Virus record (IMG/VR): IMGVR_UViG_2660238215_000003
Reading direction: 5' to 3' (one strand)
DNA from: a virus
Taxonomy: Duplodnaviria > Heunggongvirae > Uroviricota > Caudoviricetes
DNA length: 26,936 bases
Shown: piece by piece, positions 1,679 to 8,597 of the stretch
Layout of the letters: every line of letters starts with the position of its first letter
Position numbering within the stretch: position 1 is the first letter of the stretch
Made by a program: the position numbers and the translations under genes
The notes under the pieces: model-generated
Told to the model about the DNA's origin: nothing
The model's input: only the letters and a program-made list of their open reading frames with translations
The model's database searches: none

Positions 1679-2191
1679 ATGAAAGAAATAAAATTAACGC
1701 CAGAAATGGTGCTTTCTGTTGTTGATTACAATCCATCATCAGGCGACTTTCACTGGAAATGGAGGCGGGGGAGAGAGAGGACTACTTTGACATGGAACTC
1801 TCGTTTTGCTTTCAAGAAATGCTCATCAATAAGTTCTGGTGGGTATTTAATGATTATGCTTAATGGTAAAGCATACCCTGCTCACAGACTGGCATGGTTG
1901 ATTGTTTATGGCACCATGCCCGATGGCATTATTGATCACATCAACAGGGTAAGAACAGATAACCGGATATCAAATCTTCGTCTTGTCACTCATTCCGAAA
2001 ATATGCAGAACAGGAAAATTCAGAAGAATAATAAATCTGGGTACCGTGGCGTGTCTTGGGATTCTAAGTACGGGAAATGGAGAGCAAGAATTAATGCGTC
2101 TGGAAAGTGTATTAACCTTGGATACCATGACACAGCAGAACTTGCCGCTGCGGCTTTTGAGGCAGCCAGAATGAAATATCATACCGTTTAA
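1679..2191 (+). CDS. HNH endonuclease with C-terminal AP2-type DNA-binding domain (homing-endonuclease-like)
   Basis: ATG with AAGG SD; HNH-like core HINRVRTDNRISNLRLVTHSENMQN; AP2-like segment YRGVSWDSKYGKWRARINASGKCINLGYHDTAELAAAAFEAA; AT-rich relative to neighbours. Confidence 0.8.
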   Translation: MKEIKLTPEMVLSVVDYNPSSGDFHWKWRRGRERTTLTWNSRFAFKKCSSISSGGYLMIMLNGKAYPAHRLAWLIVYGTMPDGIIDHINRVRTDNRISNLRLVTHSENMQNRKIQKNNKSGYRGVSWDSKYGKWRARINASGKCINLGYHDTAELAAAAFEAARMKYHTV

Positions 2192-2245: not shown

Positions 2246-2320
2246 GGGTCAGTCGTATAAAGGTCATTACGGAAGGCTGTTAACCTTCTTATCGTGGTTC
2301 GAGTCCACGCTGTCCCGCCA
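2246..2320 (+). tRNA. tRNA-Asn (anticodon GTT)-like, with a weak D-arm
   Basis: Manual cloverleaf: acceptor GGGTCAG/CTGTCCC (one mismatch), anticodon stem GAAGG/CCTTC with loop CTGTTAA, T-arm CGTGG-TTCGAGT-CCACG, discriminator G and encoded CCA. The D-stem is only about 3 bp, so it may be a divergent phage copy or pseudo-tRNA. Confidence 0.6.
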
Positions 2321-2325
2321 AATAT

Positions 2326-2401
2326 GCTGGTTTAGCTCCAATGGTAGAGCAGTCGCCTTGTAAGCGAATGGGTAGCGGTTCAAGTCCGTTAACCAGCACC
2401 A
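2326..2401 (+). tRNA. tRNA-Thr (anticodon TGT)-like
   Basis: Manual cloverleaf: acceptor GCTGGTT/AACCAGC, D-arm GCTC-CAATGGTA-GAGC, anticodon loop CTTGTAA, T-arm AGCGG-TTCAAGT-CCGTT, discriminator A and encoded CCA. Confidence 0.65.
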
Positions 2402-2644: not shown

Positions 2645-2848
2645 ATGTACCGTATGGACAAAATCAGAGAATGGTTCAGTTACAGCTTCGGAGGACTGAC
2701 TGCGATGGGTGGCATTCTCTCCCTGAATGACTGGGCTGTCATCATTGGTATTCTTTGTACTGTCGGCACATTTGGCATCAACTGGTACTACAAGCGCAAA
2801 GAGCGCGAGGACAGATTGAATGGCAATGTCACCGGCACTACGAAATAG
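2645..2848 (+). CDS. Holin (small two-TM lysis protein, phage 21 S-like pinholin class) with dual-start motif
   Basis: 67 aa; begins MYRMDK with two in-frame ATGs (2645 and 2654) separated by a basic residue, the classic antiholin/holin dual start; hydrophobic segments [12 protein letters not shown] and [14 protein letters not shown]; charged C-terminus; overlaps the endolysin start. Confidence 0.75.
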
Positions 2849-3323
2849 CGTAATAGCGGCGATAAGTGGCGGGGCTATTGCTATAGCATCTGTGTTAATC
2901 ACTGGACCGAGTGGTAACGATGGTCTGGAAGGTGTCAGCTACATACCATACAAAGATATTGTTGGTGTATGGACTGTATGTCACGGACACACCGGAAAAG
3001 ACATCATGCTCGGTAAAACGTATACCGAAGCAGAATGCAAAGCCCTCCTGAATAAAGACCTTGCCACGGTCGCCAGACAAATTAACCCGTACATCAAAGT
3101 CGATATACCGGAAACAACGCGCGGCGCTCTTTACTCATTCGTTTACAACGTGGGTGCTGGCAATTTCAGAACATCGACGCTTCTGCGCAAAATCAACCAG
3201 GGCGATATCAAAGGCGCATGTGATCAGCTACGTCGCTGGACATACGCTGGCGGTAAGCAATGGAAAGGTCTGATGACTCGTCGTGAGATTGAGCGTGAAG
3301 TCTGTTTGTGGGGGCAACAATGA
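2820..3323 (+). CDS. SAR endolysin (phage lysozyme with N-terminal signal-anchor-release domain; phage 21 R / P1 Lyz type)
   Basis: GAGGA SD; N-terminal Gly/Ala-rich weakly hydrophobic segment [16 protein letters not shown]; catalytic E-x8-D-x5-T arrangement in [17 protein letters not shown]; position immediately after the holin. Confidence 0.9.
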
Positions 3324-3415
3324 GCATGATTTGCTTTTTCATGGCAGCGTTGCTCGCATTCAATGGCAACGATGCGTGGCCGTGGTTTCTGGCCGTTGGA
3401 GTGTTGATGTCATGA
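3320..3415 (+). CDS. Possible 31-aa hydrophobic peptide between endolysin and Rz ([31 protein letters not shown])
   Basis: ATG overlaps the endolysin TGA (ATGA at 3320-3323) and its TGA overlaps the Rz ATG (ATGA at 3412-3415); G-rich SD-like run upstream. Too short for the ORF track; speculative. Confidence 0.3.
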
Positions 3416-3873
3416 GTCGGTTAACCGCGATTATCTCCGCTCTGGTTATCTGCATCATCGTCTGCCTGTCATGGGCTGTTAATCATTACCGTGATAACGC
3501 AATCGCCTACAAAGAGCAGCGCGATAACAAGGCCAGTGAACTGGAGAAGGCGAACGCCACCATTACTGACATGCAGCAGCGCCAGCGTGATGCTGATGCA
3601 CTCGATGCTAAATACACCGGAGAACTAGCTGATGCGAAAAAGCAGCTTGATGATCTGCAGCGTTGTGTTCGCACTGGCAAGTGTGGGCTGCACTTCAATG
3701 CCCGATGTCCAGCGAGCGGAAAGACCGGCACCGGCAGCTTGGGCGATGCTTCCAGCCCCGGACTTACTGACTCCGCTGAACGGGATTATTTCACCCTCAG
3801 AGAGCGAATCGTCACAGTGACGAAGCAGGTCGGCTACTTGCAGGACTACATCAAAGAGCAGTGTTCAAATTAG
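3412..3873 (+). CDS. Rz: Rz, inner-membrane spanin component (i-spanin)
   Basis: Starts [23 protein letters not shown] (N-terminal TM), followed by a coiled-coil-like charged region; lies after the endolysin and contains an embedded +1-frame lipoprotein ORF. The upstream extension to 3283 in the ORF track overlaps the endolysin and is not hydrophobic. Confidence 0.8.
3632..3820 (+). CDS. Rz1: Rz1, outer-membrane lipoprotein spanin (o-spanin), embedded in Rz in another frame
   Basis: Signal peptide ending in lipobox-like ASVGC followed by TS, then a Pro-rich region and C-terminal [11 protein letters not shown], matching the lambda Rz1 pattern; GGAGA SD; fully contained in Rz. Confidence 0.75.
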
Positions 3874-3931
3874 TGTTAATGAAGAATTTTAAGGGTAATA
3901 TTATCTCTATTTCTCAGGATGGAGGTAATTT

Positions 3932-4339
3932 ATGCAGACCGATCTGGAATACTTGAAGGGAATGTTAGGGGTTTTTATTAAGGCTGGCGGACCATTGATA
4001 TCAGCTAATGACCTTAAAAAAGCTGGATACGAAATAAGCAGCGATAAAGGACTCTTTCATTACTACCAATTGATTGAGAGAGGTTATATCAGTAACCATT
4101 TTCTAGAAATAGGCGATCCTAAGAAATTAGGACTTACTATTGGGCTTAATGAAATCCGTGAATGGCCAGCCAATGTAAGACTCACGTCATCAGGCCAAGA
4201 GTTTGCAGAAACCCTTCAACAAAAGGATGTTTTTGAGAAGCTAAAAACAATTAGCGATCAACCATTATCGGTATTGAAAGATGTTGGTGTAGAGCTTCTA
4301 AAATCCTACGCAAAAAAGAAATTTGGTCTTTCAGATTAA
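3932..4339 (+). CDS. Hypothetical moron protein, DUF2513-like winged-helix protein (function unknown)
   Basis: Strong SD GGAGG 7 nt upstream; AT-rich gene in the lysis-terminase interval; motifs LFHYYQLIERGYISN and a C-terminal helical region resemble, from memory, the DUF2513 family. Not searched. Confidence 0.6.
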   Translation: MQTDLEYLKGMLGVFIKAGGPLISANDLKKAGYEISSDKGLFHYYQLIERGYISNHFLEIGDPKKLGLTIGLNEIREWPANVRLTSSGQEFAETLQQKDVFEKLKTISDQPLSVLKDVGVELLKSYAKKKFGLSD

Positions 4340-4453
4340 CTGCCTATGGGCGGTTTTTATTGCCATTACGATGATTCTCCCCATTGTGATGGCAGTATCC
4401 CCTACAGAGGATAATTAACCATATATCCCCACAAGCAGATAAAGAGGCTCTCA

Positions 4454-4567
4454 ATGTCCGACATCTACCAAACCCAAACAGGCGAAACCTTTACGGGCAA
4501 GACGTCACGACGTCAGCCTGAGCTGGTTAATGGCTTTATGCAGCTGGCTACCGAGACGGGCGAGTAA
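4454..4567 (+). CDS. Possible small ORF (37 aa, MSDIYQTQTGETFTGKTSRRQPELVNGFMQLATETGE)
   Basis: ATG with AAGAGG SD about 8 nt upstream; GC content higher than the surrounding AT-rich DNA; no recognisable family. Confidence 0.25.
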   Translation: MSDIYQTQTGETFTGKTSRRQPELVNGFMQLATETGE

Positions 4568-4655
4568 ATAACTCCATTAGGAGAATGTGGAACCATTACA
4601 CTTTGAGCCGTTAACTGATATTGATAAAGGTAAATAATATCCTGGTTAAGGTTTT

Positions 4656-4928
4656 CTAATAGCCAGCCATTTGCAAAATCACAGTTACAGCAGCAGCGAA
4701 AGCTGCATATGAGTTATATTTAGACTGTAACCGCGCAGTTAAGAAAAATTCGTGAAGATCTACATTTTTTTTGGGATCATCAAATGTAATTGCTACAACG
4801 GTGCTTCTACCTGTTTTGACTTTGGCTGTTGCTGATTTGATCCATAACCCAGCCGATAAAAACCCAAAGAAAATCGATAGTGCATGATGGTCAATTAACC
4901 AGTTTTTAATTAGTAATAAATCACTCAT
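4656..4928 (-). CDS. Hypothetical small membrane protein (about 90 aa, two predicted hydrophobic helices), convergent with the DUF2513-like gene
   Basis: Open minus-strand frame of more than 100 codons in AT-rich DNA (stop-rich composition makes chance ORFs less likely); ATG at complement of 4926-4928 gives MSDLLLIKNW...; hydrophobic segments ALSIFFGFLSAGLWI and AAFAAAVTVILQMAG. Its promoter would have to lie inside terS, and the SD is weak. Confidence 0.4.
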   Translation of the reverse strand: MSDLLLIKNWLIDHHALSIFFGFLSAGLWIKSATAKVKTGRSTVVAITFDDPKKNVDLHEFFLTARLQSKYNSYAAFAAAVTVILQMAGY

Positions 4929-4952: not shown

Positions 4953-5504
4953 ATGGCACTCACCGACAAACAAGAGATGTTCTGTCGCGAGTACCTCATC
5001 GATTTAAACGCCACGCAAGCGGCTATTCGGGCGGGGTACAGCGCAAAGACAGCTAACCGTACCGCATCCGAAAACCTGTCAAAACCTGACATCAAGTTAA
5101 GAATCGCCGAACTGAAAGCGCAACGCAATGATCTTGTTGGTATTAATGCAGGATATGTACTTAATCGCCTTATTGAAATCGACCAGATGGATGTGCTCGA
5201 CATTCTCCTGCAAAACGGTGAGCTAAAGCCCATTAAAGACTGGCCTAAGGTATGGCGCACAACGCTATCAGGAATGGATGTCGTGGAGATGGCATCCGCA
5301 GATAGCGCCGCACTTCTGAAGAAAATCAAATGGCCTGATAAGGTTAAAAACCTTGAGTTGCTCGGGCGTCATGTTTCTGTTCAGGCGTTTAAAGACAATG
5401 TCAAAAATGAAGTGACTGGTGCTGACGGAGGACCAGTCAGAACAGAAATTACCAACTTAACGCCGGAGCAGGTTGCAGAAGCGTATAGAAAAATGATGGG
5501 CTAA
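4953..5504 (+). CDS. Terminase small subunit (P27/Terminase_2-type)
   Basis: N-terminus [30 protein letters not shown] is typical of this small-terminase family; immediately precedes the large terminase. Confidence 0.85.
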
Positions 5505-5508
5505 GAGT

Positions 5509-7131
5509 ATGCCGTTACCATTCCCCTTCGATTTTAAACATCCTGATTACCAGATGGTTTTTGAATGGCGGATGGAACGCCTACAGCGCATTCGCCAGAA
5601 TCCTGAAATATTGCCTGCACTAAAACAGTTTTACCGAACCAATCCGGCTCAGTTCATCATCGACTGGGGCATGACAACGGACCCGCGTAATATTGATTAT
5701 GGCCTGCCGGTGACCATTCCGTTTTTACTCTTCCCTAAGCAGGAGGAGTGGATCCACTGGATTATGGAACGCTGGAGCAATCGGGAGAATGGTATTACCG
5801 AAAAATCCCGTGAAATGGGGCTCAGTTGGACCGCGATCGGACTGGCATGCTCGCTTTGTCTCTTCAACAAAGAAATGGTTATCGGTTTTGGCTCCCGTAA
5901 AGAGGAATACGTCGACAGCACTGGTGACCCGAAAGCATTGTTCTGGAAGGCGCGCAAGTTCGTGGAAACGCTACCTGTAGAGTTTCGCGGTTCGTGGAGT
6001 GAGAAGAAGCACGCGCCATATATGCGTGTTGAGTTTCCTGAAACTGGTGCCGTTATCAAAGGCGAGGCTGGCGATAATATTGGTCGTGGTGACCGTACCA
6101 CGCTTTATCTGGTTGATGAGGCTGCATTCCTTCAGCGTCCTCTGCTGATTGATGCGGCGTTGTCACAAACGACGCGTTGCCGTATCGACCTGAGTTCAGT
6201 TAACGGCATGGCTAACCCGTTCGCTCAGAAGCGTCATGGCGGGAAGATACCGGTATTCACATTCCACTGGCGGGATGATCCTCGCAAGGATGAAGAGTGG
6301 TATCGCAGGGAATGCGAGAAAATCGATAATCCGGTGGTGGTGGCACAGGAACTTGATCTGAACTACAGCGCATCAGCGGAAGGCGTCCTGATTCCATCCG
6401 AATGGGTACAGGCTGCCGTTGATGCGCATATCAAACTGGGTATCCAGCCAACAGGCAAACGACTTGGCGCGATGGATGTCGCCGACGAAGGCAGGGACAA
6501 AAATGCCTTTTCCACCCGTCATGGCTTCCTCCTGGAAAATGTGCGGGAATGGTCCGGTGTGGGCAGCGACATTTATCAGTCCGTCGAGAAGATTTTCGGC
6601 TTTTGCGAACAGGATAACCTCGAAGAGTTTCGCTTTGACGAGGACGGACTGGGCGCTGGAGTTCGCGGCGATGCACGCGCTATCAACGAACTGCGTAACG
6701 CTGCGCGTCGACCGTCAATACTCGCCACACCGTTTCGAGGTAGTGGCGCGGTATTTGATCCGGATGATGAAGCTGTTCGCGGGGACAACGGGCAAGCCGC
6801 ACGTCTGAACAAGGACTTCTTCGCTAACGCCAAAGCCCAGAGCTGGTGGCGGTTACGTAAACTTTTTCAGAATACCTGGCGCGCCGTGGTTGAAGGTATG
6901 GCTTACAACCCGGACGAAATCATCTCAATCAGCAGTAGCATGGCACTCAAAGATAAACTCATCATCGAGCTTTCGCAGCCGACCTATTCCATTAATGGTG
7001 TGGGAAAAATCGTTATTGATAAACAGCCTGATGGAACCCGGTCGCCAAACCTTGCCGACTCGGTGATGATCAACTATGCCCCAATGAATTCAGCCCTGAA
7101 CATCTGGGAGTTGCTAGGGAGACAGGCCTGA
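5509..7131 (+). CDS. Terminase large subunit
   Basis: 540 aa, follows the small subunit after a 4-nt gap; ATPase-like N-terminal half and acidic nuclease-like C-terminal half; its stop overlaps the portal start (TGATG). Confidence 0.85.
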
Positions 7132-8597
7132 TGGCACGAAACAAACAAGCCCTGCGGCGAACTGCGCAGGCCACAGCCGATGGTTATGAGAATTTTATTG
7201 CCCGCGTAGGGATGCAGACACCTAACCAGCACTCAGCATCCACCTACCGGGCTAATTTTACCAGTCGTAACCGCATGCTGGTGGAATGGTCCTATCGTTC
7301 GTCCTGGATTATCGGCGAAGCGGTCGATGCTATCCCGGATGATATGACCCGCAAAGGCATTCGCATCACTTCGGAAATTGATGCAAAAGATCGCGGCATT
7401 CTCGAATCACAACTGGATGAGTTGCAAATCTGGGATGCACTGAACGACGTGCTGAAATGGTCGCGCCTCTATGGCGGCGCGGTGGGTTTCATCATGATTG
7501 AGGGGCAGGCACCAATGACCCCTCTGCGACCCGAAACCATCGGTAAAGGCAAGTTTAAGGGGATTCTCCCGCTCGACCGCTGGATGATTGACCCGGTACT
7601 GACCCGCCGCATTAAAGATATGGGGCCGGACCTGGGTAAACCTGAGTTTTACGATGTGGTGACCACAGCAACGGGAATTCCTGCCTGGCGCATTCATCAC
7701 AGTCGACTGATTCGCTTTGATGGCGTCACGCTGCCATTTCAGCAGAAGATGACCGAGAACGAATGGGGAATGTCGGTTGTAGAGCGTATCTGGGATCGTC
7801 TTACCGCGTTCGACAGCGCTACTGTCGGCGCGGCGCAACTGGTCTACAAAGCGCATTTGCGCACCTACAGCGTGGAGAAGCTACGCGAGCTTATCGCACT
7901 TGGTGGTCCTGCGTATGAAGCGTTGCTGAAGAATATTGACCTGATTCGACAGTTCCAGAGCAATGAAGGCATGACGCTCATGGACTCGCGGGATAAGTTT
8001 GAAACTCATCAGTACAGCTTCAGTGGTCTGGATGACATCCTTTCACAGTTTGCAGAACAGATTAGTGGCGCTGTTGGTATCCCACTGGTGCGGTTGTTCG
8101 GACAGTCCCCGAAAGGATTTTCTACCGGTGATGCAGACCTTGCCAACTATTACGACCGCATCAGTTCGTTGCAGGAGAGACGTTTACGTCTTCCGGTGCG
8201 GCGGATACTGGACATCATGCATCGTTCGGAACTTGGCAAGCCGCTCCCGGATGATTTCACGTTTGAGTTTAACCCGCTCTGGCAAATGTCTGATGTCGAT
8301 CGTTCAACGGTGGCGTTAAACACCACCAACGCAATCAGTACAGCGCTGGGTGATGGCCTGATGACACTGAAAGCCGCTATGACTGATTTGCGCGAAAATT
8401 CTGACGTAACCGGCATCGGGGCATCCATTACCGACGAGGACATCGAGAATGCCGAAGATGAAGCGCCGCCCGGCATCGGCGAACCTGATGACGAACCGCA
8501 GGAACCGTCAGGCGGAAATCCGCTATCGAACCAGCCTACGCAGGATAGCGCGGGGGGTCGGAGACATCGTAAATGGTCGCTACGATGGTTCAAATGA
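7131..8597 (+). CDS. Portal protein
   Basis: 488 aa directly after the large terminase; acidic C-terminal tail (DEDIENAEDEAPPGIGEPDDEPQEP) typical of portal proteins. Confidence 0.8.
   Translation: MARNKQALRRTAQATADGYENFIARVGMQTPNQHSASTYRANFTSRNRMLVEWSYRSSWIIGEAVDAIPDDMTRKGIRITSEIDAKDRGILESQLDELQIWDALNDVLKWSRLYGGAVGFIMIEGQAPMTPLRPETIGKGKFKGILPLDRWMIDPVLTRRIKDMGPDLGKPEFYDVVTTATGIPAWRIHHSRLIRFDGVTLPFQQKMTENEWGMSVVERIWDRLTAFDSATVGAAQLVYKAHLRTYSVEKLRELIALGGPAYEALLKNIDLIRQFQSNEGMTLMDSRDKFETHQYSFSGLDDILSQFAEQISGAVGIPLVRLFGQSPKGFSTGDADLANYYDRISSLQERRLRLPVRRILDIMHRSELGKPLPDDFTFEFNPLWQMSDVDRSTVALNTTNAISTALGDGLMTLKAAMTDLRENSDVTGIGASITDEDIENAEDEAPPGIGEPDDEPQEPSGGNPLSNQPTQDSAGGRRHRKWSLRWFK

Follow-up and report, generated by a model that had tools for sequence, protein, structure and literature searches.

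A divergent DUF2513-superfamily winged-helix gene as accessory cargo between the spanin and terminase genes of a lambdoid prophage

The window, by which we mean the whole stretch of 26,936 nucleotides that was analyzed (IMG/VR record IMGVR_UViG_2660238215_000003), holds the late region of a lambdoid prophage. Its conserved genes frame an interval of 1.08 kb between the spanin gene Rz and the small terminase gene, in which an open reading frame (ORF) for 135 amino acids starts 58 nt behind Rz. The framing genes are the following, with the strand in brackets where it was recorded.

968-1456, the Q antiterminator.
1679-2191 (+), an ORF with HNH_3 and AP2 domains, homing-endonuclease-like, between Q and the tRNA and holin genes.
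2246-2401 (+), tRNA-Asn(GTT) and tRNA-Thr(TGT), between the Q/HNH genes and the holin gene.
2645-3323, holin and endolysin.
3412-3873 (+), the Rz i-spanin (PF03245, E 8.6e-37; phrog_13, E 3.5e-70), which forms the left boundary of the slot and is context rather than cargo.
3632-3820 (+), the Rz1 o-spanin, embedded in Rz, with a lipobox-like LASVGC.
4953-5504 (+), the small terminase, TerS (PF03592, E 2.2e-39; phrog_51), the right boundary of the slot.
5509-7131, the large terminase, TerL.
7131-8597 (+), the portal protein (DUF1073).

Two side observations concern this framework. The HNH_3/AP2 ORF is present in some relatives only (L006, L007, L031), and some RefSeq records label the DUF1073 portal gene of near-identical prophages as "anti-CBASS protein Acb1 family protein", which looks like annotation transfer. 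The slot itself contains the features below.

3894-3907 (+), a left-flank motif, GGTAATATTATCTC, shared with a relative of 89% identity (L017) and present as TAACATTATCTC in phage ENT1, which has different cargo.
3921-3925 (+), a Shine-Dalgarno sequence GGAGG, read from the sequence, 6 nt ahead of the ATG.
3932-4339 (+), the coding sequence of a 135-aa winged-helix protein of the DUF2513 superfamily, with an ATG start and a TAA stop at 4337-4339.
4338-4363 (+), an intrinsic-terminator-like hairpin (AACTGCC-TATG-GGCGGTT followed by a T run; sequence-level evidence) that overlaps the stop codon.
4358-4397, an imperfect palindrome, TATTGCCATTACGATG / CATTGTGATGGCAGTA, with half-sites CCATYAC, directly after the terminator.
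4399-4447, a pair of imperfect direct repeats, TATCCCCTACAGAGGATAA / TATCCCCACAAGCAGATAA, ahead of the start of the phrog_6581 gene.
4455-4568 (+), the remnant of a phrog_6581 gene, a truncated 5' part of 37 codons.
4656-4928 (-), a second low-GC cargo gene (0.37), encoding a 90-aa phrog_14357 protein with two hydrophobic segments.

Homologues of the 135-aa ORF form 44 clusters in Enterobacterales that align from M1 to the C-terminus, and comparison with relatives of 87-90% identity gives a dN/dS of 0.04-0.08, with synonymous sites near saturation. Both observations place the gene under constraint, and judged by them the ORF is a genuine gene and not a chance reading frame. A GGAG or AGGAG is found at the same spot as the GGAGG in most homologous loci, in agreement with the strong ribosome-binding site that had been proposed in a sequence-only reading of this DNA. 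The AT-richness described in that reading is equally clear: the ORF has a GC content of 0.38 (GC3 0.33), compared with values of 0.50 in the window as a whole, 0.53 in Rz and 0.47-0.52 in the terminase genes.

The same reading had noted a resemblance to the DUF2513 family. In a whole-protein Pfam search residues 36-110 match positions 34-96 of the 100-position PF10711 (DUF2513) profile with 15.4 bits (E 0.025), below the curated gathering score of 29.6 bits, so that the protein alone falls short of the family while the resemblance stands at the superfamily level. There, 32 of 36 close homologues match PF10711 at E <= 1 (best 3.7e-5) and 72 of 92 distant homologues at E <= 0.01 (best 9e-15). 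The family profile (A2) retrieves from a large database, at 1e-46 to 1e-41, proteins with a precomputed PF10711 assignment that are named "DUF2513 domain-containing" and are 30-37% identical over 96% of the query. As the profile reaches bona fide PF10711 proteins at about 1e-46 although the protein misses the cut-off, the comparison makes it a divergent member of the DUF2513 superfamily. The profile retrieves 292 representative clusters at 50% identity, a lower bound for a family that is common in prophages and whose members range from Proteobacteria to Acidobacteria and Nitrospirota. The motifs LFHYYQL and RLTSSGQEF are present in the window protein, and H43, R83, T85 and G88 are at least 90% conserved in the family alignment. 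The protein also matches phrog_585, of unknown function, over its full length (E 1.1e-26; residues 1-133 against positions 1-127 of 128). A PADLOC-DB 2.0 search returned no family for the protein or for its relatives P0033 and P0060, and an NCBIfam search of the protein gave no match; its RefSeq name is "hypothetical protein". Literature searches for DUF2513 and PF10711 found no paper, and among the matches listed for "YjcQ" all were unrelated to this protein family.

Structure prediction with AlphaFold gave a pLDDT of 83.9 from 36 sequences and of 97.3 (pTM 0.89) from 92 sequences; in the deeper AF2 model a compact winged helix leads into three C-terminal helices, which agrees with the winged-helix fold claimed earlier. 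The predicted elements are a helix at residues 5-17, a strand at about 23-24, helices at 25-30 and 38-49, an elaborated beta wing at 53-84 and helices at 86-96, 98-105 and 112-130, the last of which is packed confidently on the domain. A membrane-targeting amphipathic role was considered for this C-terminal helix and rejected: its hydrophobic moment is only moderate, it packs on the domain in the AF2 model, and it is kept upstream of fused effector domains in rare relatives. A profile search of PDB sequences found no relative, with only chance-level matches to TUT4 (E 0.3). The family is acidic (median pI 5.3) and its alignment has no conserved basic residue in the putative recognition helix, which weakens the model of a simple DNA-binding repressor.

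How the gene is distributed defines its relation to the phage backbone. It occurs in 10 of 5426 complete E. coli genomes, always at >= 99% identity, whereas the same TerS and TerL genes are found in 312 E. coli genomes. With these terminase genes, the space between spanin and TerS in E. coli is otherwise occupied by a KilA-N gene, by unrelated hypothetical genes or by minus-strand genes. Enterobacter phage ENT1 has the left motif in the form given above, the terminator, the palindrome and the phrog_6581 gene around a gene that is unrelated to the ORF:

2445-2999 in ENT1 (L061), an alternative cargo gene of 184 aa with an N-terminal hydrophobic segment.

In those of the 56 viral-contig loci whose lysis genes are recognizable, relatives with 45-100% identity always follow these genes on the same strand, in most such loci directly after the spanin gene. 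Relatives stand ahead of at least five unrelated terminase modules; more distant ones are located in the nin region, in genomic islands or close to int/xis. Carriers of the gene differ in holin and endolysin types. In lambda, the corresponding region is occupied by bor. The comparison confirms that the interval between spanin and terminase genes is a variable cargo (moron) slot, as had been proposed for the space between Rz/Rz1 and TerS. The composition of the gene is moron-like, and its terminator is conserved. By the same distribution the ORF is optional accessory cargo, built as a single-gene cassette of Shine-Dalgarno sequence, ORF and putative intrinsic terminator, and its occurrence argues that it is dispensable for lysis and packaging.

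The flanks of the cassette indicate how it is exchanged. The last 17 codons (4289-4339, 51 nt) are 96-100% identical as DNA in loci in which the remaining gene is only 33-71% identical, which places a recombination junction inside the 3' end of the gene; evidently, the ORF is moved between phage backbones by recombination in conserved flanks. Reading the C-terminal conservation as proof of a conserved interaction surface has to be tempered, as these 51 nt are a shared recombination flank. The palindrome at 4358-4397 is unique in the window (0 expected by chance) and is found in the same place in 20 of 60 loci. It is part of the conserved right flank and not of the cargo, and a degenerate version is present in ENT1, which lacks the ORF; it may serve as a binding site or a recombination flank, or form a second hairpin. 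As an operator of the ORF protein it was rejected, since ENT1 retains the degenerate copy and the rest of the right flank; a stem-conserving RNA hairpin looks unlikely, with two stem positions mismatched in L014 (by eye). The direct repeat at 4399-4447 is present as a single copy in L014 and L027. The phrog_6581 gene encodes 68-72 aa where intact (e.g. in ENT1 and L027), and the copy in the window has lost 4 codons and stops early; its truncation apparently coincides with the beginning of the low-GC region of the minus-strand gene. Near that gene, minus-strand positions 4954-4927 form a promoter-like site, ATGACA-16-GAAAAT. The gene, at 4656-4928, is found together with the ORF only where relatives are at least 99% identical; it possibly encodes a small membrane protein and looks more like a prophage-expressed moron than the ORF does.

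Whether the ORF has a promoter of its own bears directly on how it would be expressed. Promoter-like AT-rich hexamers had been proposed upstream, with TAATAT near 3896-3901; the hexamer is there, and an overlapping TATTAT at 3899-3904 is the better -10 candidate:

3876-3904 (+), a sigma-70-like promoter candidate, TTAATG-17 nt-TATTAT (TTAATG at 3876-3881, TATTAT at 3899-3904), with a PWM score of 8.79.

In the PWM scan this candidate belongs to the top 5% of 232-nt segments of the window, whereas a consensus scan of the region upstream of the ORF found no promoter on the + strand. In the relatives L014 and L018 (87-90% identity) the -10 is not kept and reads GCTTAT or ACTTAT, and no -35 is conserved among homologous upstream regions. 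Across homologues, 14 of 30 distinct upstream regions score in the top 10% of their own locus and the upstream regions outscore other co-directional gaps (median 8.56 versus 5.77, p = 0.005), an excess that is confounded by AT-richness (GC 0.38 versus 0.47). Both an own promoter and prophage expression independent of late transcription are therefore only suggestive. A CCGCC-loop-GGCGG hairpin with a T run follows the stop codon in most distinct loci (46-100% protein identity), with varying loops. In every prophage locus with identified lysis genes the ORF is downstream of them and co-oriented with the late operon. At the least, the ORF would be transcribed when the late operon, antiterminated by Q, is read through; given its orientation and its short distance behind Rz, this requires no extra assumption. 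A weak promoter of its own may add expression in the lysogen, and the terminator at 4338-4363 would then stop this transcript before the terminase genes.

The strongest competitor of the reading that we prefer builds on the proposal first made for this gene: a classical moron with its own sigma-70 promoter, expressed in the lysogen independently of late transcription. In this version the product would control genes of the host as a transcription factor (lysogenic conversion). The AT-rich DNA, the conserved terminator directly after the stop codon and the variable slot all fit this proposal, as do the rank of TTAATG-17-TATTAT within the window, the scores of the homologous upstream regions and a MarR/PadR-like fold that is typical of regulators. 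The promoter evidence is offset by the consensus scan, by the missing -10 and -35 conservation and by the compositional confounding; the acidic family, with no conserved basic residues in the recognition helix, agrees poorly with a transcription factor, and no target site was identified. We consider this explanation unlikely, while it retains a real share of the probability.

Clues to function come from rare relatives in which the module is joined to other domains, a handful among the 292 representative clusters. P0107 consists of a whole DUF2513-like module and a CAP12/Pycsar-type TIR domain (Pfam E 7.7e-21; PADLOC PDC-S35, PycTIR), P0184 of the module and a PDC-S60-like domain (E 2e-28), and P0142 of the module and an AbiTi-like region (a weak match, E 2.6e-4). 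All three fusions keep the C-terminal helix, and the PADLOC matches are confined to the fused effector parts. In Aeromonas piscicola (L070 4126-6456) a solo copy lies between two Mrr_cat nuclease genes, in a small element with a Phage_GPA replication gene, and one of these Mrr_cat genes matches PDC-S02 and PD-T7-1. In other prophages the post-lysis region that holds the ORF carries genes of a counter-defence type: one with an Acb2/Tad1 hairpin in Klebsiella, and MT-A70 and ParB_N-methyltransferase genes elsewhere. A conserved partner gene was looked for and rejected: the genes that flank 50 genomic homologues are not related among themselves, and the neighbours of viral and genomic homologues cluster only among close relatives.

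The fusions to TIR or other defence-type domains are a weak hint at sensing or regulation in the conflict between phage and host. The winged-helix module would bind nucleic acid or another conserved ligand, and the ORF protein, having no effector, would be a sensor or regulator in conflicts of a phage with its host or with other phages. Because the same module is elsewhere fused to TIR, candidate-defence or Abi domains, or stands beside Mrr-like nucleases, the solo phage copy would modulate or mimic defence-type systems, or repress a conserved target, rather than kill. Against the mechanism speak the rarity of the fusions, the blank PADLOC and NCBIfam searches of the protein itself and the neighbours that are not conserved; moreover, counter-defence usually acts early, and the placement of the ORF in the late operon is not obviously suited to it. 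This mechanism is offered tentatively, as one that may be correct but stays clearly short of an even chance. Taken as a whole, an accessory winged-helix cassette, expressed at least by read-through and carrying a module that may be conflict-related, is probably the best explanation of the locus, with appreciable room for doubt.

In a more far-reaching version, an undescribed modular defence family would comprise DUF2513 with TIR, with PDC-S60-like and with AbiTi-like domains and with neighbouring Mrr-type nucleases, and the DUF2513-like winged helix that stands alone would be its detached sensing or regulating module. The lambdoid prophage copy would then be a decoy or inhibitor (counter-defence), or a trigger-binding protein that protects the lysogen against other phages. 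We regard this extension as speculative and improbable in its full form.

Three further explanations are disfavoured by the distribution of the gene and by purifying selection. An accessory part or regulator of the lysis cassette, such as a cytoplasmic factor that tunes holin or spanin timing, would account for the spanin-adjacent position in so many loci, where relatives directly follow Rz-type spanin genes of several families (c1, c38/phrog_312, c56, c104) on the same strand in most viral loci. However, the ORF is rare in E. coli although the spanin type and lambdoid lysis cassettes are widespread, and an Rz-containing query matches 355 phage records. The upstream holin and endolysin types vary among carriers, unrelated genes fill the slot in sister phages, and more distant relatives occur near int/xis, in the nin region or outside phage contexts; one E. 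coli lineage has the ORF about 1.4 kb away from Rz, with other genes in between. A lysis role is thus quite improbable.

Less probable still is a packaging-associated DNA-binding factor that acts near cos or pac, for example at the palindrome, and aids terminase. The position of the ORF just upstream of the terminase genes and the unique palindrome 20 nt downstream speak for such a factor, which had also been named earlier, in its conserved form, as the finding that would contradict a moron. A packaging role is unlikely because relatives precede at least five terminase types after the spanin gene; most of the 312 genomes with the same TerS and TerL do without the ORF, and ENT1 combines the palindrome and the rest of the right flank with other cargo. 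The distribution thus largely refutes it. Equally remote is the idea that the gene has no function and is a passenger, or a decaying remnant, brought along when the flanks recombine. The truncated phrog_6581 neighbour and the part of the C-terminal "conservation" that is shared flank could be cited in its favour. The purifying selection at saturated synonymous sites argues strongly against it; conservation over the full length, seen in 44 clusters and, across phyla, in 292 representative clusters, and the confident fold prediction also oppose it.

The interpretation first given to the ORF is thus partly supported: it was largely right, and falls short at the Pfam threshold and at expression in the prophage state. 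Neither the place of the ORF nor the fold of its product is unusual for an accessory gene of a phage. Were the conflict-related reading true, the DUF2513 domain would gain a function, and the lambdoid slot between spanin and terminase genes would stand out as a site that takes up defence or counter-defence cargo. The defined recombination flanks of the slot (terminator, palindrome and direct repeat) could serve to mine further cargo genes. If it is false, the locus is one more well-delimited case of lambdoid mosaicism, with a hypothetical gene of clear fold.

When compared with known systems, the gene is a divergent new member of a known, uncharacterized family, in a typical accessory-gene slot. 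The protein is in the same length class (about 134 aa) as PF10711 (DUF2513) and the related YjcQ family PF09639, both uncharacterized. With PF10711 it shares F-x-F-H in helix 3, R-L-T-x-x-G-(H/Q)-x-F at the wing-to-helix junction and the predicted winged-helix fold. Unlike the core of PF10711, it belongs to an Enterobacterales prophage subfamily that is only 30-37% identical to the core family. The PF10711 model stops before the helix at 112-130, which is kept throughout the subfamily and its relatives.

At the level of fold, the protein resembles MarR and PadR regulators and two small winged-helix proteins of viral or plasmid origin, TubR and STIV F93, with TM-scores of only 0.35-0.45. Shared are the order helix, strand, helix, helix, beta wing and further helices, and the LT-x-x-G motif between wing and helix. 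The similarity is limited to the fold, as neither the protein nor 128 homologues match the MarR or PadR Pfam models. In contrast to these proteins, its wing contains a 25-residue insertion, and its AF2 model (a monomer prediction) is compact rather than an extended dimerisation scaffold. The acidic family and a recognition helix with no conserved basic residues further set it apart from MarR and PadR.

Among single-protein defence candidates of the CAP12 type (PADLOC PDC-S35, PycTIR), an N-terminal sensor is combined with a C-terminal TIR domain. P0107 joins a complete module to TIR, which suggests that sensing or regulation in such proteins can be a task of the module. Unlike these, the window protein has no effector domain and no PADLOC match, and no effector gene adjoins the ORF because the terminator directly follows it.

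The closest parallel at the level of the locus is the moron, reportedly in the sense of Juhala and Hendrix, with the morons of HK97 and with bor and lom of lambda as lambdoid examples. The bor gene of lambda encodes a lipoprotein, lies on the opposite strand and has a proven promoter; unlike bor, the ORF is co-oriented with the late operon, has a promoter that is a candidate only and encodes a putative cytoplasmic winged-helix protein. Like these lambdoid morons, it is an optional gene between conserved modules, with a deviant, low GC content and a terminator of its own, carried by a minority of otherwise near-identical prophages.
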